Shown here one piece after another: positions 22,604-49,920 of a DNA stretch of 64,000 nt. How positions within the stretch are numbered: position 1 is the first letter of the stretch; each line of letters starts with the position of its first letter. Source of the DNA: a virus (Duplodnaviria; Caudoviricetes); IMG/VR virus record IMGVR_UViG_3300002220_006617, positions 32,001-96,000 of that record; one strand, given 5' to 3'. The position numbers and the translations under genes are program-made. Under the pieces are notes generated by a model, which was not told where the DNA came from, made no database searches, and saw nothing but the letters and a program-made list of their open reading frames with translations.

Positions 22604-22617
22604 AAAATTACCAAAAG
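22604..22617 (+). promoter_or_regulatory. Class I motif AAAATTACCAAAAG
   Basis: Exact 14-mer upstream of ORF 22655. Confidence 0.7.
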
Positions 22618-22654
22618 GTACTCTCGGAAAAAATCTTTACGGAGTTGTATACTG

Positions 22655-23146
22655 ATGACATCTACTATTCTTGGGATCACGGGCCGCATCGAGGCTCGCC
22701 ACTTTATGAAACTCGACCAAATTTGTGAACAACAGGCAAACAAACACCTGCCGGTTAAGTTAGTCAAAATCGACCCTCGGTGTGAGAAAGCAATGGAATG
22801 GGCCCTCATCCGCGGCATGGCCATTGTCATCGAGAAACTGAACTTCACCTACGAGAGAAACTCCATCGACGAGTTCACCAAACTGGTAGTCGGTGAACCC
22901 ACAACCCCCGAGGACTACGCAACCCCAGGCGTTGAAATGGACATCTGCAACCTCACAGACTGCAACATGCCGATCACCCATTCACGAGTTGCACTCGAAG
23001 GCACAGACGGACTCCCGCTGGTCGGCGACCTCTTACCCGACCGGGAATACGGGCGCTGGGTAGGTCCAGACGTCAACATGATCGTCGCAACAGGCGAAGT
23101 CAACGTCCCCAGAATTGAAGGCATCCCCGTAATCAGGGCGTGGTAA
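22655..23146 (+). CDS. Hypothetical protein
   Basis: ORF with GGAG upstream, downstream of class I motif. Confidence 0.6.
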   Translation: MTSTILGITGRIEARHFMKLDQICEQQANKHLPVKLVKIDPRCEKAMEWALIRGMAIVIEKLNFTYERNSIDEFTKLVVGEPTTPEDYATPGVEMDICNLTDCNMPITHSRVALEGTDGLPLVGDLLPDREYGRWVGPDVNMIVATGEVNVPRIEGIPVIRAW

Positions 23147-23523
23147 CTTTGGCAAACAACGGACATTTCGAACCAATCGGCAACCTCAGAATGGGCAACA
23201 CCAACCCGACAGGCATCCTGTGGATCCCCATCAACGTAATGCTTGAGAACAACAAAGTCATCGGCATGCAGAAACACGTAGACGCCGAAGGCCAGGAGTC
23301 CTGGACCCAGGCAGAGGTCGGAGTCATCAAGGAGACAGCCACGGGCAAATCCCTGGCACTCAACATCTTCGGCACCGACGTTTACGTCAACAAAGAAGCC
23401 GTTGCCCAGCTCAAATCCAAGAAAGTCGGCGCGATCCAGAGTGTCAGTGCGGTCACCCTCATCCACGACAGCAACGCTCCAACCGGAGTAAAAAGCGGAA
23501 TCCAGCGGGAAACCGCTTACTAA
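23140..23523 (+). CDS. Small beta-rich protein, paralogue of 8434 and 46725
   Basis: VGVIKETATGKSLALNIFGTDVYVN. Confidence 0.6.
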   Translation: MVTLANNGHFEPIGNLRMGNTNPTGILWIPINVMLENNKVIGMQKHVDAEGQESWTQAEVGVIKETATGKSLALNIFGTDVYVNKEAVAQLKSKKVGAIQSVSAVTLIHDSNAPTGVKSGIQRETAY

Positions 23524-23934
23524 TTTTCATGTACCGGGAGACTTCAACATGACCGACTACGTCAAACTGGTCTGGACGCATATCCGGAACGGCCGGGAAA
23601 GTGTTCCATTACCGGACAAGAAACAGTTAGTTCGAGACGAATTCATCTTCACCTGCCCCATCTGTGGCAACACGATGAGTTCCTGCAATTACAACCACAT
23701 CGGCAACTTCCAGGTTGATGCAGCTGATCATCTGGAGACCTGCATGACCAACCCCGCGAAATGTACTATGTGCGGAAACCTGTTCAAAAGACTCGAGATG
23801 ATGCCAACCGGAAAATGTATCCGATGTGAAATCCTGTCCATAAACATGGCCAACCGGCACGAGTAGTCAATAAGATTGACTCATTCGAAAGGAGTATTGA
23901 CAAACTATTTAAGCGTATGAGATAAGATTCTGTC

Positions 23935-24900
23935 ATGAAGGACTCGTACTTCACGAAACGAATCCGTCAGGACAAACAAGCTCTTGAAACGTATACAAGA
24001 GCAATCGAATGGGACCCTGTCAGACTCAGCCGGGCCATGTCCTCCACGGGTTTGCCGCATGAAGATGTCTACCTGGAAACGCCAAACCAGAAACTCATTG
24101 ACCATCTCTCAACATTCATCCTGAACGCCGGCACGAACTTCTTCTTCATCCTCGGCCCCAACGGGTTCGGCAAAAGTTCCATCAAAGACTTCTCGTTACT
24201 GGTCTTCAAGGACATCAACCAATATGTTTCATTCAGCCTTGACAACATCGGGCCGATCACAACATTCCAGATGCTCCGTGAAATCTACCTCAACATGACC
24301 GGGCTGGAAAAAGCGCCACGAACCCGCGGGGAACTCAAAGATGCGATCGTCAACCACCTGATAACCACTCGGAGCAATGAAAAACTCCCGATCACAACCA
24401 TCGTCTGGATTGACGAAGGCCAGAAACTCACATCTGAAAAACTCGAGGCCCTCCGGATGATAGCCGATACCAGGACGCTCAAAGGCGACTTTACCTGCAA
24501 ATTCATCATTGTCGGAACCGAAGGACTCAAAACCAAAATCGCCAACTGGATGACAACACATGATGAGGAAGGCATGGCTGTCATGGACCGGGGATCCCAG
24601 TTCACCTACGATCTCAACCCCTGGGACGAACAACATATCTTCAACTGGTGGACGCTCCTCACGGAATACTGTTCAATCAACCAAAGCACAGACATGATCA
24701 ACCCGTTCCAACCGGTCACTGCCAAGATCGTCCACAAACTCAGTGAAGGTAAACCCCGCGACATAGTCCAGTTATCCCAACTGGCCCTGCTCGCCCGGGC
24801 AGACAAATATTTAACCGATCCTAAAAACGGCTGGACAGTCCGACCAGACGACATCATGGACGCCCTCGGCATCAAACAGACTGCGGAGAAGAAAAAATGA
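23935..24900 (+). CDS. AAA+ ATPase, ExeA/AAA_22-like
   Basis: GPNGFGKS, WIDEGQKL, FIIVG, SEGKPRDI. Confidence 0.8.
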   Translation: MKDSYFTKRIRQDKQALETYTRAIEWDPVRLSRAMSSTGLPHEDVYLETPNQKLIDHLSTFILNAGTNFFFILGPNGFGKSSIKDFSLLVFKDINQYVSFSLDNIGPITTFQMLREIYLNMTGLEKAPRTRGELKDAIVNHLITTRSNEKLPITTIVWIDEGQKLTSEKLEALRMIADTRTLKGDFTCKFIIVGTEGLKTKIANWMTTHDEEGMAVMDRGSQFTYDLNPWDEQHIFNWWTLLTEYCSINQSTDMINPFQPVTAKIVHKLSEGKPRDIVQLSQLALLARADKYLTDPKNGWTVRPDDIMDALGIKQTAEKKK

Positions 24901-25304
24901 CCCGTCACGAAGGCCAAACCCCGGCACAACGAATGCAACAGGCACTCGAGGCAAACCCGGACCTCATCCAGGAAACCATCACACGACACCCGGAAGGCAC
25001 AGAAATCACGAACCACCCGATTCCCGCGATCAGTCCCAAACCATCCACAGAATTGCAGGAACCCCCGCGCAAATCAAAGTTAAACCTTGCACTTGAATTC
25101 GGAGACATTCAACCCAAGAACATGATCTATTCCCGCGAGATCGCAGCACTCATCGAGTACCGGTCATTAACAGTCATTAAATACGTTAAATCCGAAGAAT
25201 TACTGCGATGGTGTGAAGAAGGAGCTGCCCGGGATTACCCGGACCTTTACGCCAAGATCAAAGATCACTTCAAAGATCATCCAAAGAAAACTAAACGAAC
25301 CTGA
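24897..25304 (+). CDS. Hypothetical partner of the AAA ATPase
   Basis: ATGA-coupled to the ATPase. Confidence 0.6.
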   Translation: MTRHEGQTPAQRMQQALEANPDLIQETITRHPEGTEITNHPIPAISPKPSTELQEPPRKSKLNLALEFGDIQPKNMIYSREIAALIEYRSLTVIKYVKSEELLRWCEEGAARDYPDLYAKIKDHFKDHPKKTKRT

Positions 25305-25348
25305 AAGGATCCAGCAACATTTTCAGGTTCAACAAGGAGTCACAGACG

Positions 25349-25888
25349 ATGTCAACCACCATTTATACCGATGGGGCCTGCAGAGGAAACCCCGGCCAGG
25401 GGGCCTATTCATTCATAGTCTTCCAGGACAACAAAGAAATCTTTAGAGAATCTGCACTAATTGCAGGCGTTACAACGAACAACAAAGCAGAATATCTGGC
25501 CATCGCAAAAGCAATGCAATGGGCTGGCAAGAACAACATCACAAAATTCACCATCTTTTCCGACAGCAAACTTGCTATCAACCAGATAATCGGCGAATGG
25601 AAGGTCAAAGAACCGGAACTCAAGGCCTTCATCTACACGATCCGCGGGCTCCTGGCTGCACTACCCAAAGACGCAGTCACATTCACACACACCACCCGTG
25701 AAACTAATGGGATCTCAATCTGCGACAAGATGTGCAACGAGATCCTTGACTGTGGCAAATCAATAACCGATGAAACCACTACTCGCCAAACCTGGCAGGT
25801 CCTCTATAGGTGCCCGGTCTGCGGGGCCACATTCAGCTCAGTTGACGGGTTCTGTGAAGCCTGCGATACCATCCTCGTAGAACCGTGA
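25349..25888 (+). CDS. rnhA: Ribonuclease HI with C-terminal Zn ribbon
   Basis: YTDGACRGNPG, TNNKAEY, SDSKL..NQ..G.WKVK; CPVC/CEAC. Confidence 0.9.
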   Translation: MSTTIYTDGACRGNPGQGAYSFIVFQDNKEIFRESALIAGVTTNNKAEYLAIAKAMQWAGKNNITKFTIFSDSKLAINQIIGEWKVKEPELKAFIYTIRGLLAALPKDAVTFTHTTRETNGISICDKMCNEILDCGKSITDETTTRQTWQVLYRCPVCGATFSSVDGFCEACDTILVEP

Positions 25889-25930
25889 TGGAACCAAGTG
25901 ACTTCACTTAAAATACCCGCCTGCAGAACA

Positions 25931-26002
25931 CAGTAAGTGAGGCGAATCACACCGCCGCTTTACTGCGGAATGACTCATCGGACCTGTTCCGATTGAAATT
26001 CC
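25931..26002 (+). ncRNA. Candidate two-hairpin small RNA
   Basis: CAGTAAG/TTTACTG and ATCGGA/TCCGAT stems, just downstream of a TGAC-TATA motif (25898), with no ATG at the usual distance. Confidence 0.35.
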
Positions 26003-26967
26003 ATGGGATATCCTCCCTTTTCCAAATGTGATGATCATGAGCTATTACCAGCAACTTCAATTCACGAACGTACAAATAACCCCCGACAACTTCCGCAAAT
26101 TACGGGATGCAATCCGAGAAAACCCGCCAGATCTCGACAGGTTCAACATCGGTACCCCCGGAAACCTTGGACTCAGTTGTTGGGATTTCAACCAAGATAC
26201 CGGGCAGTCCGACAACATCGATGTCGAATTTCGACAGAGCAAAGCAACAGACTACGACTGTCTGATCATGGACTTCATCGCCCCATTCGTTGTCGATAAC
26301 AGTTACATCGAAATGCAGGGCGAAGACCGGGACTACTGGCGCTGGACGTTCATTGGCGGCAAATGTTACGAGACGTACGGTGAACTCATCTGGCCCGATC
26401 CGGTCATTGACCCCCCGGCAATGGGGTTTGTCAAAGGGACCTGGGTACCGGTATGACAACCCACGATATCCCGGCAAGATTACTCAAACAAACCCTACCA
26501 AAACACCTGATATCCGTGCTGGGAACCGAAACCGTAACCACCCTCTGTAAAACACGGTTCTACAAATACCGGGTCCGGAACAAACGATGCCCGAAATGTG
26601 GATCCTCCTCAACATATTACCGTTCAATAACACGAGACATAAAATGCTGCAGTTGCGGAACCGTCAGAACTACCGCAAAACGGTGAAACCATGAACCTCA
26701 AACTCAAAAACCGGTACAAACCGACCGGCAACGGCAAAGTTATTCCCGGAAAATGCCTGCACTGTGCCAACCGGTCAGTATACAACTGCACCGGTTACGA
26801 CAACAAACGTTGTGAAACCGTGTGGCAAGTCCTCTGTTTCCGTTCATATTCCCACCTGACAAAAATAGGAACAAAATCATGACCAAACCAGAAACCAAAA
26901 ACATGTTATTTCTCATCACCCGCCAGGCAATCAACGAACACCGCAACAACCATCCGGGGGGATATTA

Positions 26968-27327
26968 ATGAACCACATCAGGCATTTTGTAGCCGGAGTT
27001 GATGATTTCGACTTCTACATCCTTGATGCAGATATAACCCGGGCGAGTCTTCGTGACGGGGCAGAGTTCAAACGCTGTTTCGGGCTTGCACTCACCCGGT
27101 TTGTCCGGGACACGTTCAACCAACAGGAAATACGCAAAGCCCAAACCGAAGGTTTAGAGCTCGAACCCGCAAAAGATTATATCACAAGCCCGGTATTCAT
27201 ACGTGAACTGATATTAATGGGTATCAAGAACCTCAAGATTGTCCACCTAACTGCCATGGATACCGATGAGTGGGCATCTGAAGACAACCTCATCGATGAC
27301 GACCTGTTACCTCCCATCATTGAGTGA
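26968..27327 (+). CDS. Hypothetical protein, paralogue of 18602-18985
   Basis: FK...G.AL......D...EG...F...L...GI..L...D.D.W...D..ID pattern in both. Confidence 0.6.
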   Translation: MNHIRHFVAGVDDFDFYILDADITRASLRDGAEFKRCFGLALTRFVRDTFNQQEIRKAQTEGLELEPAKDYITSPVFIRELILMGIKNLKIVHLTAMDTDEWASEDNLIDDDLLPPIIE

Positions 27328-27366
27328 CATCCACTTATAACTCCGACAGGTAAGGTTATCTCTACT

Positions 27367-27786
27367 ATGAGTGGAAACACGTTCATGGACGACCTCAAAG
27401 CGTCCCAAGTAAAGGTAGCCAAAGTCCCGCTGGCAGGAGGCCTTGCAAACGCATTCGCCTTCGCTTGGAAGAATCCCGAAGAGACTGACATCATTGTCCA
27501 AAAAGTCGTTGTAGACATCACGACTGAGGGTGTAACCGCAACTTCCGTCATTGACATTGGTGTCGGTGCAACGGCCACCACGGCATCCAATACGATCATC
27601 GACGGCCTTCCGGCAACAGCCCTGAAAATCGCTGACAACATCACGGACAAAGGCACATCCGGCACGGGCCTTGCCCAGCGGGTCAACAAAGTCGGCGGCA
27701 CCAGCGCATTCATCACCGGCCAGATCCTTGTAGCCAATGCAGCAGCTCTTGCCGGCAACGTCTACATCGAGTATCTCAAAGTATAA
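27367..27786 (+). CDS. Putative virion decoration/structural protein
   Basis: Ala/Gly/Thr-rich beta protein (IDIGV, GNVYIEY); own late-type promoter and downstream T-tract. Confidence 0.55.
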   Translation: MSGNTFMDDLKASQVKVAKVPLAGGLANAFAFAWKNPEETDIIVQKVVVDITTEGVTATSVIDIGVGATATTASNTIIDGLPATALKIADNITDKGTSGTGLAQRVNKVGGTSAFITGQILVANAAALAGNVYIEYLKV

Positions 27787-27880
27787 CCCCTTTCAACCCT
27801 TTCTTTTTATTTACTCAAACACCTAAATAGTGAAACAGCAATCCCTGGCCAGCAACCCGGGATCATCACAGGCGACAACC

Positions 27881-28444
27881 ATGTTACCCGACAACAAGAC
27901 CGTATGGGATCTCGACGGCACGATCCTCCTCTCATGTTTCAACGATCCCTGTTGGAACGAAGCCGTAAAGTTAGTTAAAAAACCAGACGAACTCACCCGG
28001 TTTGCAACCTTCCATCCCGGGATTAATCGGGCTGATATCCAGATGATCCTAACCGCCAGGCACCTGCAGACCATGAGTTACCCAACGTGGACTCAACTCC
28101 GCGATCACGATCTGCTTCATACCAGGACTATCCTCAACCCCAACCTCGACGATCATACCAGTGCCCAGTTCGCCAGGTTCAAGATCAACTGGTGCAACCA
28201 ACACTGGCCGGACTATTACGTTGACGACGACCCGGTCATCTGCAACCTGATGCAACCGCACCTGATGCATACCCGGTGTGTAACCGTAGAAGAATGGTAT
28301 CAAATCCACAATCCCCCTTCTCCCCCAGGTTTCCCCTGGGCCCCTTCCTCCCCCCTCAACCCCGTTGAAGGAGCCAACCGGAAGGTCCGGGACCTTGCAG
28401 CGGCCCTGCTCAGGTGCCAGATAAACCCAAAGGTGCCAACATGA
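27881..28444 (+). CDS. HAD-like phosphatase, degenerate
   Basis: VWDLDGTI and YYVDDD motifs. Confidence 0.6.
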   Translation: MLPDNKTVWDLDGTILLSCFNDPCWNEAVKLVKKPDELTRFATFHPGINRADIQMILTARHLQTMSYPTWTQLRDHDLLHTRTILNPNLDDHTSAQFARFKINWCNQHWPDYYVDDDPVICNLMQPHLMHTRCVTVEEWYQIHNPPSPPGFPWAPSSPLNPVEGANRKVRDLAAALLRCQINPKVPT

Positions 28445-28851
28445 GGACCACATCACTCGTCGGCGGATCACCGGTTAATGTAGACTACGAAACCTGTGTC
28501 ATCTGTCACGCCCCAACCGGCCGGGCAGGTAAAAATGAAGATTCTCTCTATGATCGGGACCGCGGCCCGTTCTGTGAAGACTGTTTCGAAGAATACCACA
28601 AAACCCGCAAGAAAATGCAGGACATGTACCGGGCCATTTTCACAGCCATCCGCGAACTCGATCAATTCTGCATAACCCAGGATTATTTCTCCTGCACGGA
28701 ATGTCCTATCGGGTTCGGGTCCATGGACTTCTGCAAAAAGAAATCCATCAAAGGCGAGCTAGAACACCAAGCCCACGCAATCCCTCGCAACACGTACACG
28801 GGCTGCCCGGCCCGTGGTATAAACAACTCAGCATCTTTCCCGTGAATCAAC

Positions 28852-29186
28852 ATGACAAAACCACTCTTCAAAAAAGGCGACAAGGTCAGAAAACTGGTCG
28901 GCAGTCTGATCTATACCGTCACCAAAGTCACCAAGAACAAAGTCACGTTCCAATACCGGGACAACACAACGGAACACGAAATTGACGAAAAAAATCTCCG
29001 GGCGGTCTGACCATGAAAACCATATCAGGATTCCGGAAAGGCGATCAAGTCCGATACATCAACCATGCAGAATTCATCGATGAAACCGGGGTAGTCACCA
29101 AAGTCGATGGCAACTGGATCAATGTCCAGGTCGGCAAAGCACTCAGCAGATATCCGGCCAACAAACTCCAGAAGGTGCCATTATGA
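28852..29186 (+). CDS. Two tandem small KOW/SH3-like proteins (28852-29010, 29013-29186; not in ORF track)
   Basis: FKKGDKVR...VTKV and FRKGDQVR...GVVTKV. Confidence 0.55.
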
Positions 29187-29615
29187 TCCTCTACCTGATC
29201 CAACTGACAATACTCTCGGTCCTGGCTGTCATAACCATATCCATGATCGGATTCCTTGTTGGCATGGCTGCCTGCTGGCTTGACCGAATCTGTTCAGAAA
29301 CATATTCCTGGTGGTCGTAATGCTCAACGAATGCCAGAAAGAAGCAGTCATCGCAACCATCAAGGATGTAATGTGGGGGATACTATTGGCAATCGGGGCG
29401 ATCCTCTGTTTCCTTTTCGTAATGATTGTGCTCCATGCCGTCGGGATGATGATAAGTAAATGGTTTCCGCCGGCAACAATCGAAATTCCCGGCCGTATCG
29501 TGATATTCGGAATTGTAGGCGTAATAATCCTTTACGCAGGGGTGGTGGCAATAAGAAGACAGTATACCCGGAACTTCGAACACTGCCGGTGGATGCAGGA
29601 ACAGGGAAAATCGCC

Positions 29616-30341
29616 ATGACCGACATCTGCAACCTCGGCGGATTCATATCCCTGAGCACCCTGGACTGGCCCGGCCGATCAACATCAGTTATCTTTCTCC
29701 GCGGCTGTCCCAACCGGTGTCCCGACTGCCACAACAAACATCTGGCACAGGAAGGCCCAACCGTCCCGATGACTGAAGTCTTCGAACTCCTTCAACTCTC
29801 AGTCCCATTCGTCGGCGGTGTCGTAGTTTCCGGCGGTGAACCCACCAAACGCCTTGAAGAACTGACCCGTATCCTCGAGTACGCTCACGATATCGGGCTA
29901 CAAACCCGGGTCCAGACCAGCGGGATCTACCCGGCCAACATTGAAAAACTTATCGACCGGCAACTCGTTGACTCAATTGCCCTCGACTTCAAAGTCGAAC
30001 TCGGCCGGATAGACACGATCCTCCCGAAAAATATACCCTATTCCGCGGTCCCGCAAACTCTCAAAATCTGCGAGATAGCCCGGGCCTCCGGAACACTGGA
30101 TGATTTTGAAGTGGTCCACACCATTTTCCCGTATTACGGTCACGACCGACAACTATCCCACATCTCAAACTACGTCGATAGAAAAACCAAATTCATACTC
30201 AACCAAGGCCAACCGCTCAACCCGGTCCATTTACCATTAGATCACGACCGGCTCTGCGAACTCACATCCACGTTCGTACGGCAACCGCTCCGATACGTCA
30301 GATCAAAAGATAAAGGACAGGTGTTTGTCAAAAATGTGTAA
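29616..30341 (+). CDS. Radical SAM protein, anaerobic RNR-activating family
   Basis: STLDWPG, GCPNRCPDCHN, VVVSGGEPT. Confidence 0.85.
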   Translation: MTDICNLGGFISLSTLDWPGRSTSVIFLRGCPNRCPDCHNKHLAQEGPTVPMTEVFELLQLSVPFVGGVVVSGGEPTKRLEELTRILEYAHDIGLQTRVQTSGIYPANIEKLIDRQLVDSIALDFKVELGRIDTILPKNIPYSAVPQTLKICEIARASGTLDDFEVVHTIFPYYGHDRQLSHISNYVDRKTKFILNQGQPLNPVHLPLDHDRLCELTSTFVRQPLRYVRSKDKGQVFVKNV

Positions 30342-31031
30342 CGAGCGATCGCCTCCCACATCCGATCGCAAAAACTTTTTACGGTCCTGTATCTACCGGC
30401 CGACCAACCTTTGCATCGATTGCGGAGACTGCCAATATGATCCTGATCGGAGAACAGTATGTACGAAGAATTACAGTTAAGAAACATTGCCCGGGTCAAC
30501 GCCAACGTAGCCTGCGCCTTAATACGGCTGGAAGGCATGAAAGCTGAAAATGCCCAACGAGCAATAACCGGCGCACCCCCAGCATATACTGAACATCAGT
30601 TCAACCAGATTATCCTTGATGAAGAAATCGGTTACAACGCCGTACTCGCAACATTACAAAACGGACTTTAACCATGTCAAAACGACCTGCCATCTTACCC
30701 CCGGAAGCCCGCAACCCCCGGGATTCCGAACTCACCCGCCGCTGCAAATGCGGAGCAATCATCGAACTCAGCCAGACGATCTGTGAAACCTGTCGCTGGA
30801 AAGACCATCTCGAGAAACGTGCCGAGAGAACCCTGGAGAACATGTCAGCCTACTACCGGGCAATCCCTAAGAACCGGTTAGCTGCCGTAACATCATGACC
30901 GACACTGTCTGCACTACATTCGAACAGACTCCTCACGGCCTGCAGCTCTGTCATTCTGACTACTGTATCCATTCCCGCAATCCCGGCATAACCTGCCCCA
31001 TCAAAGACCAACTCAAAAAGAAACGATATCC

Positions 31032-31403
31032 ATGACCCGCATCACTACCTCCACGGCATCGCCTGCAGAACCCCAGAAATTTGTCATTATCACCCGGCAC
31101 CAGGGCGTCATTGACTGGTGTACCAGTAAAAACATCATTGGCAAATGTATCAAACATCTGAACCCTACAGACATTGAATCCAATGTAATCTACGTCGGAA
31201 TCGCCCCGCTCCCGTTAATTGAAAAAATCCTCAAGAACCGATCCCGGTTCTGGATGGCAACCGCCCCCCTCAACCTCAATTACCGGTATGAAGAACTCAG
31301 TGCTACCCAGCTGAACGAAATGGGTATGATCCTCAGGGAAGTCTGTTACCTGGAAACCATCCCGATCAACTATCAGTTCCCCTGCATTCTCGGTGCATCA
31401 TGA
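31032..31403 (+). CDS. Csx16 (VVA1548)-like protein
   Basis: ITRHQGVIDW...HLNP..I......G..PL.L...R.EELSA.QL...G matches the Csx16 pattern. Confidence 0.7.
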   Translation: MTRITTSTASPAEPQKFVIITRHQGVIDWCTSKNIIGKCIKHLNPTDIESNVIYVGIAPLPLIEKILKNRSRFWMATAPLNLNYRYEELSATQLNEMGMILREVCYLETIPINYQFPCILGAS

Positions 31404-31647
31404 CGAAAACCAATTTTCTCCATATCAATCTTCCTGAACACGGAGATTATAACTGGGGCTGTAAACTCAACAAAGCCATTACAACAATCGACCAGGAGAT
31501 CATGATGCTCTATGACCGTGCATCTGGCAACTGGAACCATACAGACGAAGCACTCACCCGGACAAAAAGAACAATGAACCGGGTATTGTTCCTCGAACTC
31601 CTCATTCTGATCTACAACATCGCATTAACCGTATTGGTACTCACAAA

Positions 31648-32334: not shown

Positions 32335-32388
32335 CCAGCACAGACAACAGGCCAGGTAACCAGATTCAGCAACCTGTGTTACCGGATT

Positions 32389-32446
32389 GAAGTTCCCGCA
32401 CGTAACCCTGCCGGTTGATACCGTCAGGGATATCGGCGGGACCTTC
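32389..32446 (+). repeat. Long TGAT-loop hairpin H4
   Basis: Homologous to H3b with compensatory changes (CGGT-TGAT-ACCG; CCCGC/GCGGG). Confidence 0.75.
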
Positions 32447-32714
32447 CCACCTGCCGGTTAATGATTTTCTGTACGGTACAACACAATCCTTCGAGATCCA
32501 GCAACGACCATGATACCAGACAACCATCAGATCCGCAAAGGCCGGGACCTTCGATGCCCGGGATGCAGCCTCAGAAAACATGCACGATACCGGAGCGGTA
32601 CCCACGATTTCCGGTGCTGTCATTGCGGTAAAATCTTCACTCGAGAACAGGCCCTTGAATTCATGACTCAGCTTGACGCTGGACTCATGGCAGCATAATC
32701 ACAGACGACACATC

Positions 32715-37492: not shown

Positions 37493-37506
37493 AAAATTAC
37501 CAAAAG
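37493..37506 (+). promoter_or_regulatory. Class I motif AAAATTACCAAAAG
   Basis: ATG 10 nt downstream (37517). Confidence 0.75.
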
Positions 37507-37516: not shown

Positions 37517-37993
37517 ATGTCATCGTTAACTATCATCTCTGGTGGTCAGACTGGTGCTGACCAAGGTGCATTGCTCGCTGCTCATGATCTCGGTATCCCT
37601 ACTGGCGGATACATCACCCGCGGTTTCATGACGGAAAAAGGCCCGATGCCCGCACTCGCTGATTTCGGACTGATCGCACTCGATACGTCAGACTACGTGA
37701 CCCGTACCCGTATGAACGCGATGAAAGGGGACGTAACCTTCTGGTCGGGGACCGAAGATTCCCGCGGTTTCCTCGCCACCAAACGAGAATGCCGCAATGC
37801 CGGTAAACCGTTCATTGTCACCACCCACTGGTGCGTTGCACAACTGATGGAATACATCAACGAGCACCCGCAGTATCACATCCTGAATTTCGCAGGCAAC
37901 CGTGAATCGTCCAGCCCGGGCATCCAGGAAAATTCCAGAGCCTTCCTGCGCCTGGCATTCACCCCATTCGCCCCGAGGAGGCCATTACCATGA
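37517..37993 (+). CDS. SLOG-family protein (putative molybdenum carrier/YpsA-like)
   Basis: IISGGQTGAD.GAL, Y..RT..N, LNFAGNRES. Confidence 0.85.
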   Translation: MSSLTIISGGQTGADQGALLAAHDLGIPTGGYITRGFMTEKGPMPALADFGLIALDTSDYVTRTRMNAMKGDVTFWSGTEDSRGFLATKRECRNAGKPFIVTTHWCVAQLMEYINEHPQYHILNFAGNRESSSPGIQENSRAFLRLAFTPFAPRRPLP

Positions 37994-40424: not shown

Positions 40425-41228
40425 GTTACCAAGAAGAATGCATTGCATTCGCAAACGACGCCCGCGAACGCGGAAACGCTCAAACTGAACAGGATTGGGA
40501 AGATCAGGCACTAGGCAACTATTACCTGAATGAAGATTAACCATTTTTTTTATGTACCGGAGCACAGACGACCATGCATCAACCACACGTAATCCACAGC
40601 AACCTCCAGAAAACTGAAGAATACCTCGAGAAAGCAACCGCAGGTATCGGAAACCTCACCGATATCCTGAACCGCCCGAGAGCCATCCGGTTCTATGCAC
40701 AAGCACATTTCGAAGCAGAAGAACGTACCTGCTGGGTCATCAGCGTCTACCTTGACATTGAAGGCAACAACGGCCTTCACCTGACCCTCAACCCGGAAAC
40801 GATCTGCGTTTTCAATGCCCCACGGCTCAGTTACAACAACTGGAAACAACAGCGCGACCAGGACCGGCCAAAAGCCCAGAAAGAACTGGAACGTACCGCA
40901 GCAAAATGGGGTTGCACAGTCATGCCAATCGCGGAATGATCATGAACGCCAACCAGAAAACTGCAATCGTCTACACGATACATGACATCCTTAAATGGAC
41001 TATTGCAACAGAATGGACCCTCATCTGTGCATACTTAATTGCCAAAATCATAACATGGACCAACCCGCAACCAATCACGCCCGTTGGCTACGCTGTCGTG
41101 TTCATCATCATGTACATCCTCTGCATACCCCAGGTCCTCATCCACGGCCTTTACCTTGACCATCTCGAAAAACTCAACGAACCGCCCGCGGCTATCCTCG
41201 GCATTGACCCGGCGGTCAGGAACCGGGA

Positions 41229-42086: not shown

Positions 42087-42087
42087 A

Positions 42088-42101
42088 AAAATTACCAAAA
42101 G
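42088..42101 (+). promoter_or_regulatory. Class I motif AAAATTACCAAAAG
   Basis: ATG 15 nt downstream (42117). Confidence 0.7.
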
Positions 42102-42116
42102 GTACTCTCGATAATC

Positions 42117-42488
42117 ATGACTGAAATCACCATTGTTAACCTGCGGAACTGCCCCGGATTCGGATCGCTGAAAGGAGATATCCGGATCGATCGCATGACT
42201 TCACTGGGCAATCCATTCCCGATCGGATCCTGCACTGAAAATGGCGTCGGTAAAGTCTACAGCCGCAAATCATGCATCGATCGATATGAAAAATACGTCT
42301 CCTACGCCGAACAGGTAGATGTCAGCGGCAAGAAATACGATGGTATGAAAGTCCGGCAAGCCATCAAGAAAATCCGGGAAGAGATCCGCGAGCATCCCGA
42401 GATGAACTACAGGCTTGGGTGTTGGTGCAGCCCCCTCAGATGCCATGGTGAAATTTTGAAAAACAGAATCCTCGATGGATGTGTCTGA
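42117..42488 (+). CDS. DUF4326 family protein
   Basis: IDR...GNPF...LGCWC.P..CHG.IL. Confidence 0.85.
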   Translation: MTEITIVNLRNCPGFGSLKGDIRIDRMTSLGNPFPIGSCTENGVGKVYSRKSCIDRYEKYVSYAEQVDVSGKKYDGMKVRQAIKKIREEIREHPEMNYRLGCWCSPLRCHGEILKNRILDGCV

Positions 42489-43248
42489 ACATGGCCCGCG
42501 GCCCCTTTTCAGATCTCCATTGCGGGTCAACCACGGCAGTCACAACCTTCACCATGGACGCCGTTCCCGCAAAATCAAGTGCAGAATATGACCATGAAAT
42601 AAGAATCGCCAAACTTCCCCGTAAAATCAGGACCAAATCAGGCGAAACTATCTGGCTCAAATAAAGAGCCACCTTATTTCAATGTACCGGAGAACCACAG
42701 ATGACAACCACATACCTCCAAGAAATCTACGACCAGCAAATGGTCTTAAAACAAAAGGCTGAAACCGAAATACCTTTTGTTGATGTACAGATAAAATCCA
42801 TTGAATCCCAGCACCGGGACCTCATCGATCAAGCCCGGCCCATCCTGGCCAACCTCAAAGGACTCAACAACCACCTGAAAAACCTCAGGCACAAAGCCGG
42901 TAAAACCGCTCTGACCTTTCAATGTGCCCAATGCAACACACAAGTCAGTATCCCTCATACTGACCTTCTGAAAACCAATACAGAAGACGAAATCATCAAA
43001 CTCGAGACCAGAATCCGCACGTTCCGGTGTTACGGCTGCGCCTACCAGGAAATCCAATCCCTCATAAGAAAACGAGACCGGGATCTCGATGAACTCAAAT
43101 TCAAAGAGACCGTCGCCAAACGCAACTACATCGAATCCCAACTCAAGTCCATCCTCAAACGCGACGACGGCGGATCGTATATCATTGCCGAATCAGGCGA
43201 GAAGATCTATCTCAGCAACATTGCCAGCATCACCAAGGTCGAAAAACC

Positions 43249-43683
43249 ATGATCTACAACACCATCTTCAACAAACTCAATGCACTCGGGTTCCTCAATG
43301 TCTGGGACCATGCAACCCTCAAGGTTGAAGGCTTCATGCCACTCGAGATCGAGGTCCTCCGGAAGACTGCTCCATTATCCAGCAACCCCTGGAAAATAAT
43401 CTCCGTCATGCACTGGTATCTCCAGGAAGGCGACGTCATGCGAGATCCCGACATGGAAATCCGGGTCTACACAAACGCCAAAATTGCAGAGGCACTATCC
43501 TACCGGCAAGACGGCGTTCCCGGAGTCGGCACTATCTTCCAGGAAGTCTACCCGGAACCCGGCAAAATCAATCAAAAACACAAAAAAGAACTCAACGTCT
43601 TCCTCAACCAATGGCTGACGAACATTAAAGATCAGGGATTCAAATACCCGGAGTCAGAGGTAAAGAAAAATGACAGCGACTGA
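43249..43683 (+). CDS. DUF1249/DUF6908-like protein
   Basis: GFMPL.IE, HWYLQEGDVMRDPDM, LN.FL..WL.NI..QG. Confidence 0.75.
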   Translation: MIYNTIFNKLNALGFLNVWDHATLKVEGFMPLEIEVLRKTAPLSSNPWKIISVMHWYLQEGDVMRDPDMEIRVYTNAKIAEALSYRQDGVPGVGTIFQEVYPEPGKINQKHKKELNVFLNQWLTNIKDQGFKYPESEVKKNDSD

Positions 43684-45495
43684 TCCCACTCAAGAACTCA
43701 TGAAAGCATGCAAGATCTATCAGTCATGCCTGAACGAAGTCAACCGGAACCGGCTGGCTGCAGGAGATCCGCCAGTTGCATATCTCAACCCGATAGCCTG
43801 CAACTGCTGTATTGACCGGGACCACACGCTCGACGAAGTCAAAGAACGATTGGCCAACAGGAAAATCAAAAGTACCTGTAAATGTCTTAATGACGACATC
43901 CCGCTCTGTCCCTACTGTGAACACAATGCAAGTCCGGGAGATACCTGCCCGGACGGATACCACGAAATCTGCAACGGCAATCCCGGTCACAAATGTCACA
44001 ACTGCAAAGGCGACGATGCGCCGTTCGCAACATCATGCACCCACTGCGTATCAAAATGTACCCGAGGATAGACCATGCCAGAATTCAGAATTTTGTTCAT
44101 TGACCCCCGCGGGGTCAACATCGAAGCGCCAACCGAACGAGAAGCAGTAGCGATCGTCATGGATCGGGAATGGGAACACGGAATGGACTGGAGTGACGGC
44201 AAAATCGAGATCATGTCAGTCGAGGAGATCTGATGATCCTCAACAAACGGGACCTCATCCACAAACTCGACGGGTTAACCGTCAGACTTCGCTGTCAGGC
44301 CGGGGCATTCATTGCAATCGAAGGCGTCCCGGACTTCAACGCTGCTGACATCCGGCTCAACCGTCTCGGCAAATGCCTTGAAATGTCGAACTACCTTATC
44401 CTCATGGGAACTGACGGTCAGGAGATGACAGAAACCACAAAAGCCCATTACGACGAGTTCATCCGATATCTCAACGAATGTCATCAGGCATTTGAAATAG
44501 GAAAGAAACCAGCATGATCAACTACTTCACCAAATCCGAAGCCCAGGCAAAGGTCGGTAAACGGGTCAAAACCAAAATTGAATTCTACCAGTTACCGGCC
44601 GGCACTACCGGGAAAGTCACCGGAATCTACAGTGGCTGGCGCAATGAAAGTGGAGTTGACATCACCTGGAACCGTAATCCACCCATCACTGACGGCTTCT
44701 CCAAAGACGAATACGAAGAGTTCATCGAGGAACTGTCATGACCCCGGAAGAAGCCAAGAAAGTAGCGGCACTCATCTGGTATGCATCTCACGACAATGCA
44801 GACGCTCCAGTTGACTCAATGCTCGATGCAGTAGCGATCCTGCCTGAACTCAAACCTTACGCCATTCTCCTCGCAAAGAAAGAATGGGACGTAAACCTCG
44901 AAATCCCTGAAGGTAATCAACCCGATCCTGAACTCACAGGACTCATTGAAGATTTATTCGAATGGACCGCCTGAGCCGCAGGCTCTAAAGAATAAAGGGG
45001 GCCCTCAAAGCCCCCGACAAGGTCCAGAATCGAGCCGTGTCTTTCATAATAAACAATAGAATACACATCTACATGATAGGTTCACATCCTACAGTAGACA
45101 TCCTAATGGGGCTGCCGCCCCCTTCAACCCCTGCTTCTCATCAATATCATCCTACCAACAACAAACCAAATCCCACATCACCGCCTGAGACACCGAATAT
45201 ATATAAATGCCCTTATACTACTACAAACTTTCGCAGAAATACCAAATCTCAACAATACACCGATAATTCACAGTCCAATCAGTAAAAACACCGCAAATTT
45301 GAGCCGGCACAAGCGGTTGGCTCTGCGGAATAGGGGCGGGCGGGTTCGCAAGGTAAGGCGGAGACCGTTACAGTTTGGGCGATACCCTGTCATCCAGAGC
45401 ACGGGCGGGCTCCGATCTACAGTTTGCCGGAGCATTATTGGCGGGATTCGCAATCGGGCTCTATTTTACAGTTTCCGGCAGGGACCTGGCAAAAC

Positions 45496-45819
45496 TGTTA
45501 CAATCAGACTGTTTCCGGGGCAGGGCCCTTTCACATGTTACCGTCTGAGGTTACAGTTTGTTACCGTCTGGCACCGTCTGTAACAAAAGAATGTTACAGT
45601 TTGTTACAGTCAGACTGTTACAGTTTGTTACAGTCAGGTGTAACCGTCGACACAGGCGGTAACAGTTGCGGGTGTAACCGTCGGAAGTGTAACAGGTGTA
45701 ACCGTCGACACTGACGGTAACAGGAGAATGTTACCGTCTGACACCGTCTGTAACATTCAGGTGTAACATTTTGTTACAGTGACTTTCGTTTAAGTGTAAC
45801 AGTGTAACATTTTGTTACA
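45496..45819. repeat. Array of about 22 GTWAC sites (iteron/operator-like)
   Basis: TGTTAC/TGTAAC/GGTAAC recurring mostly every 8-23 bp, ending at the ATG of 45819. Confidence 0.85.
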
Positions 45820-46148
45820 TGACAAAAAGCAACGTCAAACGAATCACAGAAGACTCAGAAGCAATTGCACTCAGTTACGGCCCGACAATCTCAGATGGCA
45901 TCATTGCTATGGCAAATCTTATCGGAAAACCAACCCCGGCACCAACAGTTTCCGCGATACCGTCACAACAGACAGTTTCTGGCGGGGACCTGGAAACCAT
46001 CATCAGAAAGATAGTCCAGGAAGAGGGCGTCACCTTATCGCCGAAAGCAATTGAGACGGGCATCATGCTCAGCAAGAAACAACGTGGGTTCTTCCAGAAC
46101 CTCAATAATGCATTGATCATGGCCATGAGCCGTGAAAACAAAATCTGA
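45819..46148 (+). CDS. Putative ribbon-helix-helix-like DNA-binding protein
   Basis: NVKRITEDSEAIALSYGPTISDGIIAM beta-alpha-alpha pattern; late-type promoter at 45779. Confidence 0.5.
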   Translation: MTKSNVKRITEDSEAIALSYGPTISDGIIAMANLIGKPTPAPTVSAIPSQQTVSGGDLETIIRKIVQEEGVTLSPKAIETGIMLSKKQRGFFQNLNNALIMAMSRENKI

Positions 46149-46379
46149 TTTTTTCAAGAATATATCCAATAAAACCCGGGCCGCGAAAGACCGGGCGATT
46201 ATCAAGAAGATCAGTCAAGCCGGCGAGTAAGTGTCACGGGTGACGATCAACGCTTTCAAGAATAGTCTCGCCTCAACCACAGTTTCCGGCTGCAGGAACC
46301 GACGGCCGGTTGGAGTGGGGATGCTCATCGCCATGGTTAAATACCCGATTACGCCAGCACCCAGACGGACAGACCCGAC

Positions 46380-46393
46380 AAAATTACCAAAAG
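46380..46393 (+). promoter_or_regulatory. Class I motif AAAATTACCAAAAG
   Basis: ATG 10 nt downstream (46404). Confidence 0.75.
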
Positions 46394-46403
46394 CGACGAG
46401 TGT

Positions 46404-46616
46404 ATGGTATCAGAGCGTGTTGTTGTCCATGAAGATGGCTCGTTTGTGCGTGTGATCGATGAAGTTGCCTGGGTGGCTGGCAGATTGCGGTTTATATCCA
46501 CTGTGTATCACTATGATTATCCGGAGCTCCTGTTCTCGCATGAATACTACCGCGCCGGCGTGGTTCCCGAGGTTGTTCTGGTGGGGGTCAAGTACGATCC
46601 TCCCCTCAGCTCCTGA
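46404..46616 (+). CDS. Small protein, paralogue of 49931-50113
   Basis: Shared VIDE(V/L)A...Y...VP motif. Confidence 0.55.
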   Translation: MVSERVVVHEDGSFVRVIDEVAWVAGRLRFISTVYHYDYPELLFSHEYYRAGVVPEVVLVGVKYDPPLSS

Positions 46617-46654
46617 TTTATCCGGACTGTACGGACTAACGAGTGTCTCTCGAA

Positions 46655-46668
46655 AAAATTACCAAAAG
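46655..46668 (+). promoter_or_regulatory. Class I motif AAAATTACCAAAAG
   Basis: AACGAGTGTCTCTCGAAAAAATTACCAAAAGGTACT identical to the 37.5-kb copy; ATG 10 nt downstream. Confidence 0.75.
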
Positions 46669-46724
46669 GTACTTTCGAATGAGATCACGGTTTCGTCACA
46701 TGATCTTGTTCAGGAAGTATTGAT

Positions 46725-47189
46725 ATGGAAACCACAGAACTCAACACCGGATCCGAATCGCAGATGACCTTACCCGAAACCACCAACCCGCCCGCAGCAG
46801 CACCGGCGCTCAAGAACTCCCGTTGTGGCTTCATCTTCAAGAGCCAGTTCACGGACCCGACCAAGGCATTCGTTATCAAGGCTGACGGCGTCCCCGACAT
46901 GTACATCAACGCAAATGGCGTGGTCTGGGCAAACGTGTTCAGCATCCCTGTCATCGATGGGAAACTCGCTGACGTTGGTCGTTCAGAGCCAACCCCGTTC
47001 GACACCCTGCACTCCTCAAAGTCGGGAGAGACCGTGACCTTCAGGGCACTCGGGAACAACTACATGATCAAGAAGGACAAATACAATCTGGTCAACGCGG
47101 GCCTTGAGCGCAATGCAATGGTCACCCGCCTGCCGATTGAGACCAAGACCCAGCGGGACGTTCGGCTGGCCAAGGAATCAGCAGCCTGA
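46725..47189 (+). CDS. Small beta-rich protein, paralogue of 8434 and 23140
   Basis: CGFIFKSQF..AF and SKSGETVTFRALGNNYMI. Confidence 0.6.
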   Translation: METTELNTGSESQMTLPETTNPPAAAPALKNSRCGFIFKSQFTDPTKAFVIKADGVPDMYINANGVVWANVFSIPVIDGKLADVGRSEPTPFDTLHSSKSGETVTFRALGNNYMIKKDKYNLVNAGLERNAMVTRLPIETKTQRDVRLAKESAA

Positions 47190-47311
47190 CCAATCCGCAC
47201 CCTTTTTGCACGTCTCTCACACCTGTATGTCACCACACATTGATCCGTTCCCATCATGGAAATTGGGGGGCGGATCCTTCTTTTTTGTACTGCCATGACA
47301 GCGGGGCCCGA

Positions 47312-47454
47312 TCCCCCGGCGCGCCTGGTCCTGATGAACCAGCCACTCTGGGGGACGACCCCCTATGGTCCGGTTGGGGATAGTCGGGCCCTGCGTCCTG
47401 ACAGTCGCAGACCCCTGGGCGGCGCTGATGCGCCGCTGTCAAGAACAACCCGTA
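47312..47454 (+). repeat. Structured block A, copy 1 (TGAT/TGAC hairpins)
   Basis: 47373-47454 matches 49223-49304 with about 4 mismatches; GCGGCGC-TGAT-GCGCCGC. Confidence 0.85.
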
Positions 47455-47841
47455 GTGATAGCCCAGACACATTCAATAAGAAGAATAAAACACTGACCCT
47501 GAAAACAATTATATACACCAACCGGTGGGAGAAGGTCATACCCTTAAATAAGAGAAACGATGTATTTATATCCTGACACCGTCAATAATAGTATGTCTGC
47601 AAGGCTTTGTCACCTTGCGGCGCGATAGATCTATTCTCAATATAGTTCTGTCGTCTGTGATTCATTCCGTTGCTGGAATAGCCAAGGACAACGGGCCGGC
47701 CACACAAACCTTTCGTTGCTGAAAAGGGGTCGGTCCGGAACTCCCTGAGCTGGTTTACTGTTACTTTCCTGGAGTGTCAACCTTCGTGCGATCGGAGGTC
47801 TGTTCTGTTCTTGGGGGCCGTCGCCCCCGCCACGAGGGCAT

Positions 47842-47926
47842 CCCCAGACGCCTTGCACCACGGGCTTCGCCACGAGCAAGTCTTTACAAGATGATGGAGG
47901 GCTGCCCGCCCCCCAAACCCCCTGGC
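47842..47926 (+). repeat. Structured block B, copy 1
   Basis: CCCCAGACGCCTTGCACCA...AGCAAGTCTTTACAAGAT.ATGGAGGGCT shared with 49545-49632. Confidence 0.8.
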
Positions 47927-47983
47927 CAAGGGGATCCCCCCTGGACCCCCGGGGCTGGCCGCAGGCCCACGAGTGCATTTGGA

Positions 47984-47997
47984 AAAATTACCAAAAG
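47984..47997 (+). promoter_or_regulatory. Class I motif AAAATTACCAAAAG
   Basis: ATG 10 nt downstream (48008). Confidence 0.75.
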
Positions 47998-48007
47998 CAA
48001 CGAGCGT

Positions 48008-48151
48008 ATGACGTCCTTTACAGGTGTTACGCAGCAGGTATTGACCTCAGACCACATGATGCAGCAGTTCCAGCAGATCTTCTCGTTCGATCTTCTGTTC
48101 GGGCTCAACCAGTTCGTTAGTTCAATCATCATGGTCTGCGGGTGGTTCTGA
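48008..48151 (+). CDS. 47-aa hydrophobic peptide, copy 1
   Basis: MTSFTGV...MMQQFQQIF..DLL...; no Lys/Arg; starts at the motif-defined ATG. Confidence 0.6.
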   Translation: MTSFTGVTQQVLTSDHMMQQFQQIFSFDLLFGLNQFVSSIIMVCGWF

Positions 48152-49068
48152 TGGAGATCGGATTCTCCCAGAACCTCGATTACGATCGGGCGGTTATCCG
48201 CAAGCATGTGGGGCCCGCTACGGTTCACGGCAAATCGGTCAGCAGGGACAACAACCCCCGCCACGACCTTTTCGTCTGCACAGATTGTGGCGATGTGAAA
48301 TGTGATTCATGTCCGATTGACTGGGACAAGGTTACTCGGCAGCAGCGGGGGGTCTAATCATGATCACTCCCGTCCGTTGTCCCAACTGTGGCAAACATTA
48401 CATCCCCGACCTCGGTGAACGCAAACGGTACGACATGAACATCCAGCAGGAGTTCCCGAACGCGACCAGCATCCAGCGGGAACAACTCATGACAGGTCTC
48501 TGCAGTGACCAGTGCTGGCAGGAATTCCTCGGACCTGAGCCTGAGGAGGATTTCTGTGAAGGATGCACTGCAGACTGCACCTTCTGCCCGCAGGCTGACG
48601 GGGAGAGTGCAGAATGATCATTGACGGGGACCAGCCTGTCAATAAGATCCTCGACCGGGCCAGCGAACCCCTTCCTGCCAAACCGTCAGGTGACGTGGTG
48701 GTTGGCTCATGATCGACTTCCAAGTCCCCTCCCATCTGGGGGGCCGGTTCACCAACATTTCCCACGTCAGAATGCGGAGTTGCCAGACAGTCTGTTACGG
48801 TGACCCGTGTGACGGGGTGTGGAGTGGTGTTCCCGATGCCATCAGGCATCCAACGTTCACTCCCCGCCAAACGTTCCTCGCACTGCAGTCGATCTATGAA
48901 TCACAACATCAGGACATCATAGCATTCGATATCTACGATGCCATGGAGCTCGAGTGCTGTGATCACTGTCCAATAGCAGCAGACTGCTCAACACGACCGC
49001 GGGTGGATGGCGACATCGACTGCATCACCGTGCAGGACTGGGCTTACAGTCTGTTCAGGACGAATTAA
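48151..49068 (+). other. Three small Cys-rich (Zn-binding) CDSs (48151-48357, 48360-48617, 48709-49068)
   Basis: CxxC clusters. Confidence 0.55.
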
Positions 49069-49102
49069 TCACCTTTTTTTTATGTACGCTGGCGCTGTGC
49101 AC

Positions 49103-49304
49103 TGGGGCTGGCCCTGATGGTCCCACCCCACGGGGTTATACGAGATGTCAACCCCCCAACCCCCCTCTCCAGGGGGGCTAGGCCATACGGTCCTGGACGG
49201 ACCGATGGCCAAATGGTGTATTGTTGGGGGTAGTCGGGCCCTGCGTCCTGACGGCCGCAGACCCCTGGGCGGCGCTGATGCGCCGCTGTCAAGAACAAAC
49301 CGTA
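49103..49304 (+). repeat. Structured block A, copy 2
   Basis: TGAT loops at 49115 and 49276, TGAC loop at 49249. Confidence 0.85.
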
Positions 49305-49544
49305 ACGGTAACCTGCCCCTGTCAAGAACAAACGGCAATTGTCAATAATAAACTTCAATTGTTCTCCGGACCCGAAGGGTCTAAAAAGGGATCAAGAATA
49401 CCTGGGGATCGCATAAAGAACAAACTTAGTTGCTATATAGAGCATATCATCATCCTCACCCCCATCCTCCCGGCACCCGGTTGTCAATCATAGAAGCACA
49501 CATCTTTCCTTGGGGCCACGCCCCTGGCCCCAGCGAAGCGCCAA

Positions 49545-49632
49545 CCCCAGACGCCTTGCACCAGGGGGGCCCCACTGCCCCTCCAGCAAGTCTTTACAAG
49601 ATTATGGAGGGCTCCGCCCCCAAACCGCCTGG
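49545..49632 (+). repeat. Structured block B, copy 2
   Basis: Homologous to 47842-47926 with a different internal stem-loop. Confidence 0.8.
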
Positions 49633-49643
49633 AGCGCAGTGGC

Positions 49644-49657
49644 AAAATTACCAAAAG
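49644..49657 (+). promoter_or_regulatory. Class I motif AAAATTACCAAAAG
   Basis: ATG 10 nt downstream (49668). Confidence 0.75.
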
Positions 49658-49667
49658 CCATGAGCGC

Positions 49668-49811
49668 ATGACTACTACAGGCATAGCAACAGAATCGGTA
49701 TCGCAGATGTGGATGCAGTATACACAGATGTTCAATGGCACAGTCATTGACCTCACCTGGCTCTCACCCCTCACGGACTCACTCGTCGGGCTGCTGGGCA
49801 TGGTGCTCTGA
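49668..49811 (+). CDS. 47-aa hydrophobic peptide, copy 2 (not in ORF track)
   Basis: MTTTGIATESVSQMWMQYTQMFNGTVIDLTWLSPLTDSLVGLLGMVL. Confidence 0.6.
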   Translation: MTTTGIATESVSQMWMQYTQMFNGTVIDLTWLSPLTDSLVGLLGMVL

Positions 49812-49906
49812 CCCTTTTTTGCTGTACGGTTGATACGCAGGCATACCTTGGGCATACACCCTGCGAACTACGCAGACTGATGCCCTATTGCGAGTGTGCT
49901 TGGTTG

Positions 49907-49920
49907 AAAATTACCAAAAG
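49907..49920 (+). promoter_or_regulatory. Class I motif AAAATTACCAAAAG
   Basis: ATG 10 nt downstream (49931). Confidence 0.75.

Follow-up and report, generated by a model that had tools for sequence, protein, structure and literature searches.

A candidate virus-specific promoter box repeated without variation before accessory genes of an archaeal tailed virus

The element described here is a 14-nt sequence, AAAATTACCAAAAG (the 14-mer), which recurs in a 64,000-nt stretch of viral DNA (the window; all positions are those of the whole window) forming part of the 127,665-bp virus record IMGVR_UViG_3300002220_006617. There are eight exact matches, at 22604, 37493, 42088, 46380, 46655, 47984, 49644 and 49907, all on the + strand and the same eight that had been listed in the original prediction, which was made from the sequence alone. 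None of 100 dinucleotide-preserving shuffles of the window contains a match, and the number expected by chance is zero. The whole 127,665-bp genome has no ninth copy and no variant with a single mismatch, the nearest other sequences differing at two or more positions, and the 14-mer is the most repeated word of at least 11 nt genome-wide. Each of the eight copies lies in intergenic DNA, on the coding strand and just ahead of a gene, and all are confined to the non-structural region (22.6–49.9 kb of the window), which has the Cdc6 gene on one side and the head-tail module on the other. Five of them are within 3,541 bp (46380–49920), in agreement with the cluster of under 3.6 kb originally noted.

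Judged from its sequence, the genome is that of an archaeal tailed virus of the myovirus type. The genes on the record include those for MCM, Cdc6/Orc1, PCNA, a T4-type large terminase, a Mu-type portal, a Phage_capsid_4 major capsid protein, a sheath-like protein and baseplate J, together with anaerobic ribonucleotide reductase, RtcB and an RNA ligase, and the long genes all share one strand. The median pI of the proteins is 6.75, which indicates that the host is not a halophile; the host is probably a methanogen. A 705-aa MCM reading frame crosses the junction between the end and the start of the contig (window −32000 and +95665), and a second assembly of the same virus, of 127,827 bp, has a different rotation. 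These two observations mean that the genome is essentially complete and either circular or circularly permuted; its CheckV completeness rating is 83%. Over the region its identity to four other assemblies is 100% or 99.99%, one of them having a single mismatch in 16.5 kb, and the assemblies thus show no population diversity.

The 14-mer has a strikingly constant relationship to the gene that follows it. An ATG is present exactly 10 nt 3′ of the repeat in six of the eight copies (37493, 46380, 46655, 47984, 49644 and 49907), and in the other two it is 15 nt (42088) and 37 nt (22604) away. The sequences flanking the repeat are of two types, four copies each. In the first (22604, 37493, 42088 and 46655) the 14-mer is followed directly by GTACT, and in the second (46380, 47984, 49644 and 49907) it is followed by C-NNN-GAG-Y-G-Y-ATG. 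A further short sequence, CGAGTG, begins 14–16 nt 5′ of the 14-mer at 37493, 46655, 47984 and 49907. The fixed ATG distance, the two subclasses and the upstream CGAGTG had all been described in the original prediction, and each is borne out at the individual copies.

The genes downstream of the repeats are predominantly small. The copy at 22604–22617, which has a T5 tract and TGTAC about 45 nt upstream, precedes a 163-aa orphan gene (22655–23146) with GGAG before its distant ATG. The copy at 37493–37506 precedes a gene for a circularly permuted YpsA (cpYpsA)/SLOG protein (37517–37993), and that at 42088–42101 begins 1 nt past the stop codon of a PAPS-reductase-like gene and precedes a DUF4326 gene (42117–42488). 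Within the cluster, the copy at 46380–46393 is followed by a gene for a 70-aa acidic orphan protein (46404–46616). At the next copy (46655–46668) the ATG opens a 14-codon upstream open reading frame (uORF; 46679–46723), MRSRFRHMILFRKY, whose stop codon is 1 nt before the ATG of a 154-aa gene (46725–47189) that is followed by a T5 tract; the arrangement suggests translational coupling from a leaderless uORF to the 154-aa gene. The copy at 47984–47997 precedes a 47-aa peptide gene (48008–48151), after which there are four tightly packed small Cys-rich genes extending to 49068 and then a T8 tract. A second 47-aa peptide gene (49668–49811), followed by a T6 tract, lies downstream of the copy at 49644–49657, and the last copy (49907–49920), which is the first A/T-rich signal past this T6 terminator (~49813–49818), precedes a gene for a 60-aa acidic orphan protein (49931–50113).

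The ATG at +10 is a real start codon, because the Pfam cpYpsA match begins at residue 6 of the SLOG protein, which has no alternative start, and because the ATG at 46679 opens the coupled uORF. The 163-aa and 154-aa proteins have no usable matches in Atlas, Pfam or PHROG, and no relatives of the orphan genes downstream of the 14-mer were found in the collections searched. BLASTP comparisons between the two 47-aa peptides, and between the 70-aa and 60-aa proteins, show no similarity.

Alignment of the eight copies shows how sharply conservation is confined to the repeat. Pairwise identity is 29% in the upstream 40 nt, which is the random level, 34% in the 10 nt immediately upstream, 100% in the 14-mer and 52% in the 10 nt downstream. 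Given the random-level identity of the flanks and the lack of similarity among the downstream proteins, it is selection that has maintained the 14-mer, and recent duplication does not account for it. The copies at 37493 and 46655 do have a 36-nt identical stretch in common. There are also duplicated non-coding blocks in the cluster, one of 82 bp at 95% identity (47373–47454 and 49223–49304) and a second (47877–47920 and 49586–49625) in which CAAGTCTTTACAAGAT...GGAGGGCT is common to both. These blocks precede the copies at 47984 and 49644, each of which is then followed by one of the two 47-aa peptide genes, equal in length and without detectable similarity to each other. Target-site duplication was considered and rejected: CGAC is present on both sides of the copy at 46380, and the other copies do not show this.

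The original prediction held that the element is not a TATA box, which is too strong a statement. The 14-mer contains an invariant TATA-like A/T heptamer, AAAATTA, and in seven of the eight copies the three bases 5′ of it are G-R-A/C, a purine-rich context such as that of a B recognition element (BRE); this BRE/TATA-like arrangement faces the genes. Six copies have 17 nt between the end of the heptamer and the ATG; the copy at 42088 has 22 nt, which fits canonical spacing, and that at 22604 has 44 nt. Counted from the start codon, the 14-mer in the common arrangement spans −24 to −11, and at the 14-mer genes there is no A/T-rich sequence at the canonical TATA position (−31 to −24 from the ATG).

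These distances can be compared with those of a second motif in the same genome, (G)TGAC-N2-7-TTT(T)WTAA, which is degenerate and precedes at least 15 genes, including most of the structural operons. Examples are at 5445, 45780, 50215, 51703, 57450, 59739, 61053 and 68899 (the last beyond the window). The A/T box of these TGAC-TATA promoters ends 22–28 nt before the ATG in 12 of 15 instances (22–40 nt overall, with a mode of 23–25 nt), so the 14-mer, with its 17 nt, is indeed nearer to the start than the late-promoter TATA, as had been claimed for it. In M. jannaschii the distance from the TATA edge to the start site is 23 ± 2 nt, mapped for 94% of promoters (PMC2699501). A Shine-Dalgarno (SD)-like sequence is present at only one of 14 TGAC-TATA genes, and the ATG of that gene is 37 nt away; among operon-internal genes SD-like sequences are present at 47%, against a background of 12%. 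With a spacing equal to that of M. jannaschii and SD sequences nearly absent, the TGAC-TATA class almost certainly yields leaderless mRNAs. TGAC-T-rich words related to this motif recur in two distant relatives (L019 and L023), which suggests that the class is family-wide or host-wide.

The 14-mer genes have the same signature. An SD-like sequence is present at one of the eight, and this is the GGAG of the copy whose ATG is 37 nt away; there is none at the seven genes with a nearby ATG. That the only SD sequence is found where the ATG is 37 nt off fits a transcription start just 3′ of the box. A pyrimidine, as would be expected of an initiator, occupies position −1 in four of the six copies that have the ATG at +10. 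The structural genes use the TGAC-TATA class and the 14-mer is restricted to the non-structural region. The genome appears to have two distinct promoter classes, a degenerate TGAC-TATA class that is mainly structural and an invariant 14-mer class that is accessory.

The positions of oligo-T tracts also bear on the role of the repeat. Runs of T5 or longer on the + strand are concentrated in intergenic DNA, with 44 of 77 (57%) in the intergenic 16% of the sequence (a 3.5-fold enrichment), and A5+ runs show no intergenic concentration, consistent with oligo-T acting as an archaeal terminator. Such tracts end the gene before four of the units (22604, 47984, 49644 and 49907), where the 14-mer is the first A/T-rich signal past the tract, and end three of the units themselves (46655, 47984 and 49644). 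The commonest layout in the 46–50 kb cluster is box, gene or genes, and then an oligo-T tract, with a T5 after 47189, a T8 after 49068 and a T6 after 49811, and a further T6 after 46148 preceding the cluster; the units at 46380 and 49907 have no oligo-T tract after them. Where the preceding gene ends in a terminator, the next gene needs its own promoter, and between terminator and ATG the 14-mer is the only conserved signal. No canonical TGAC-TATA box is present between the oligo-T tracts and the next ATG of the 14-mer units.

We note several other repeated sequences in the intergenic DNA. A T-tract followed by (A)TGTAC(C) recurs at 22549–22559, 23524–23545, 32464–32475, 40545–40570, 42677–42698, 44055–44070, 47281–47290, 49074–49087 and 49813–49827, and in four cases it extends as ATGTACCGGAG, 12–15 nt before an ATG. 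This motif could be a terminator fused to a third class of promoter; it and the 14-mer have TACC in common at about an equal distance from the ATG. The word CACAGATGACA, in which a start codon is set in constant surroundings (...CACAG ATG ACA), has seven occurrences (3068, 38551, 42696, 53495 and 56105 in the window, and two more in the genome) and is the second most repeated 11-mer genome-wide. Arrays of GTAACA/TGTTAC words are present at 45730–45818, before a 109-aa gene at 45819, and similar TGTTAACAA arrays are found in the distant relatives L019 (1880–2200) and L023 (1060–1340); they may represent a conserved operator array for a small regulator.

Among the matches listed, the 14-mer is not a recurrent element in other DNA. 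An exact scan of viral contigs with two extended forms of the motif gave two and zero matches, both of the former being single, chance occurrences inside AT-rich coding sequence. Genome and metagenome contigs were searched for the motif plus ATG, and among the matches listed there are only single copies in unrelated, mostly bacterial DNA. A scan of 401 genomes from the class of one archaeal match gave counts near the control, in a sample made up of small AT-rich genomes. The only close relatives found are identical copies of the same virus, and the motif is absent from the distant relatives, whose capsid protein is 53–56% identical and whose PAPS reductase is 54–60% identical; a 433-aa neighbouring gene has no relatives in the viral contigs. 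There are also short contigs whose capsid proteins are 64–85% identical. Homologues of cpYpsA are present at 59 unrelated viral loci, none with the motif, which shows that the box is this virus's own signal set before an imported gene rather than one travelling with the gene.

Virus-specific promoter boxes have been described before in other archaeal viruses, through work on HF2 and SIRV2. Repeats of class I and of class II in HF2 and other Haloferacalesvirus genomes (Russ, Pfeiffer and Dyall-Smith 2021, PMC8707807) are, like the 14-mer, short, invariant blocks found only in the intergenic regions of an archaeal tailed virus, and in both the A/T motifs are separated by C residues. The HF2 motifs are unique to the intergenic repeats (PMC8707807), and the 14-mer likewise is intergenic only, in one orientation relative to the genes, and nowhere else in the genome. 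For the class II repeats a start has been mapped at an A, with the TATA within an 8 bp AT-motif at −19 to −26 (PMC8707807); this TATA, about 18 nt from the start, is the nearest mapped precedent for a 17-nt spacing. The HF2 repeats are proven promoters whose two classes are tied to different gene modules, and virus-encoded sequence-specific factors were proposed by the authors. They differ from the 14-mer in sequence, in host group (here a non-halophile, probably a methanogen) and in length (29 or 58 bp, against 14 bp), and here the start is predicted to be on the start codon.

A second comparison is with viruses of the Sulfolobales, including SIRV2, in which the anti-defence genes that are expressed immediately have in common a highly conserved promoter sequence, one that a single regulator is proposed to shut off (Bhoobalan-Chitty et al. 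2024, PMC11065993). In both cases a conserved, promoter-containing sequence precedes many small, unrelated and mostly single accessory genes, control by one regulator is proposed, and the genes include counter-defence functions, putative ones here. The Sulfolobales sequence has a canonical strong BRE and a TTTAWATA TATA box at the normal distance, unlike the 14-mer, and in that system early expression has been measured and the winged helix-turn-helix regulator Aca8 is known. The GTC element 3′ of the TATA in SIRV1 and SIRV2 (Kessler et al. 2004, as cited in PMC5569661) is also a virus-specific extension, comparable to the CC plus AAAAG here; as described in the citing paper, it is of 3 nt rather than 7 nt and the TATA spacing is canonical. 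Among bacterial viruses, the PeSL (promoter-early stem-loop) cassettes of T4-type phages are similar in that small accessory genes in a hyperplastic region are organized as cassettes beside a recurring signal that resembles an early promoter, and differ in that they have sigma-70 promoters with a conserved stem-loop, whereas there is no common fold across the 14-mer copies.

The explanation to which we lean, with modest confidence, is that the 14-mer is a virus-specific core-promoter box used by the host RNA polymerase with TBP and TFB, probably together with a sequence-specific regulator. The purines just 5′ would be BRE-like and AAAATTA would serve as a TATA-like TBP site; this would be followed by CC, by an A-tract at the position of a proximal promoter element, and by a variable 10-nt spacer ending in Y-A(TG) as the initiator. 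With TBP and TFB, the host polymerase would begin its transcripts on the ATG or only a few bases from it, giving leaderless or very short-leader mRNAs from eight units of the non-structural accessory region. An additional sequence-specific reader beside TBP and TFB is suggested by the fact that all 14 positions are fixed, whereas the TGAC-TATA class is degenerate, and the box therefore probably doubles as a site bound by a viral or host regulator that would switch the whole set together. The original prediction of a virus-specific promoter read by a viral transcription factor or polymerase is borne out in part: the sequence supports its promoter or regulatory box and a reader beyond TBP and TFB, and does not support its viral RNA polymerase (see below).

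Several points weigh against this explanation. The heptamer ends 17 nt from the ATG, 5–8 nt nearer than in the virus's own canonical promoters and outside the methanogen norm of 23 ± 2 nt, and normal geometry would put the transcription start 5–9 nt inside five of the genes; this short spacing to the start codon is the one feature unlike a standard archaeal promoter. Repression is what a regulator would normally bring about from −24 to −11. Several copies have weak TATA-like stretches legible 20–45 nt upstream, from which the 14-mer would come to lie in a 5′ untranslated region (UTR). Among the neighbouring small proteins scanned there is no regulator gene or nameable DNA-binding factor, and the collections searched hold no motif-bearing relative that might give comparative support.

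An alternative, which we regard as unlikely, is that the element acts in RNA: transcripts would begin upstream or come by read-through from the genes before, and the 14-mer would be part of a 5′ UTR, serving as a translational operator or enhancer to which a viral or host protein binds, as RegA of T4 does at A/U-rich start regions, or as a cleavage site that makes leaderless mRNAs. Its spacing is fixed relative to the ATG while the upstream sequence and distances vary, genes without an SD sequence need some other route to translation start, and the A/T core is too near the ATG for canonical TATA geometry (PMC2699501). The weak TATA-like stretches upstream of several copies also fit this reading. 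The copy at 42088 sits directly against the stop codon of the gene before it, without an intervening terminator, and the virus encodes the RNA-repair enzymes RtcB and RNA ligase. However, no fold is conserved among the copies (z-scores are −2.2 to +0.3, and a TACC/GGTA hairpin is present in the GTACT subclass only), and the genome has no sequence complementary to the 14-mer over 9 nt or more. The dependence of several copies on a promoter of their own after oligo-T terminators also argues against it, as does the SD sequence at the copy with its ATG at 37 nt, which fits a start just after the box and follows the same rule as the canonical promoters. The RegA sites of phage T4 are A/U-rich sequences (AAAAUU...) at the translation starts of many early mRNAs in a bacterial system. 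They resemble the 14-mer in being A/U-rich and in the translation start region, but they are degenerate and overlap the AUG, and no RegA-like protein or RegA homologue was found here.

Somewhat less probable again is that initiation is virus-specific and effectively TATA-less, with a viral or host factor other than those named above reading the 14-mer and positioning the host polymerase, or that the 14-mer is an RNA operator for SD-independent translation beginning 10 nt downstream. If the start is on the ATG, the normal TBP/TFB geometry is unusable, because no A/T-rich sequence is present at −31 to −24.

We give little credence to the proposal that the 14-mer is the promoter of a virus-encoded RNA polymerase, or directs initiation that is wholly independent of TBP and TFB. 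The 14-mer is invariant, strand-specific and unique to this virus, as are the promoters of single-subunit phage polymerases, and its position misfits canonical TATA spacing. However, the genome is complete, the 705-aa MCM frame closing the circle. Profiles for TBP and TFB (PF00352 and PF00382) have no match at E ≤ 1 in the complete genome, although archaeal controls were matched. A T7-type RNA polymerase profile likewise has no match in the genome, nor any in the control genomes, and so is without a positive control. A Pfam scan of 34 of the 39 open reading frames of at least 230 aa found none that is polymerase-like. No archaeal virus is known to have an RNA polymerase of its own (PMC5569661).

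It seems equally doubtful that the 14-mer is primarily a site for recombination or cassette shuffling, acting as microhomology by which single genes could be exchanged, as with the PeSL elements of T4-type phages, and with a promoter role that is secondary or absent. Several of the units do consist of the element and one small gene, sometimes with a terminator, five of the copies are within 3.5 kb among duplicated non-coding modules, and the downstream genes are orphans or, like cpYpsA with its homologues at 59 unrelated loci, widely exchanged accessory genes. But homologous recombination would have little to work with in 14 bp, and a role in gene expression is indicated by the strict orientation and by the ATG being a fixed 10 nt away. 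The copies also lack a conserved stem-loop, and no related genomes with alternative cassettes were found, the five independent assemblies being essentially identical. Origin-recognition boxes for the viral Cdc6 were also considered, and were rejected in view of the dispersal over 27 kb, the single orientation and the tie of each copy to a start codon. Least credible is that the 14-mer is a functionless remnant of recent local duplications, since despite the two duplicated cluster modules (including the 82-bp block) and the 36-nt stretch common to 37493 and 46655, the 14 nt are identical in all eight copies while the flanks of most are at random-level identity, the downstream proteins have no detectable mutual similarity and the copies are scattered over 27 kb.

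The genes downstream of the box include the circularly permuted YpsA/SLOG gene, the DUF4326 gene, the two 47-aa peptide genes and genes for several small acidic or Cys-rich orphan proteins. SLOG and DUF4326 are often fused in DNA viruses, and are proposed to process an ADP-ribose-derived signal in virus-host conflicts (PMC9503650). The SLOG and DUF4326 genes (37517–37993 and 42117–42488) are 4.6 kb apart here and have the same promoter box, and the frequent fusion in other viruses suggests that the two act in one pathway in this virus. By analogy with the systems above, the genes bearing the 14-mer are most likely regulated together and serve host takeover or counter-defence. Early expression of these genes is only suggested, by the same analogy and by their restriction to the non-structural region.

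Almost nothing is known of the timing of gene expression in viruses of methanogens. The noteworthy points about the box are its absolute invariance and its unusually short distance to the start codon. It offers a handle in the search for a regulator and for settling the position of eight start codons on which gene callers disagree, and the short distance presents a small puzzle as to how the archaeal transcription machinery selects its start sites. The box also nominates the small orphan proteins, together with the SLOG and DUF4326 enzymes, as a co-regulated set.

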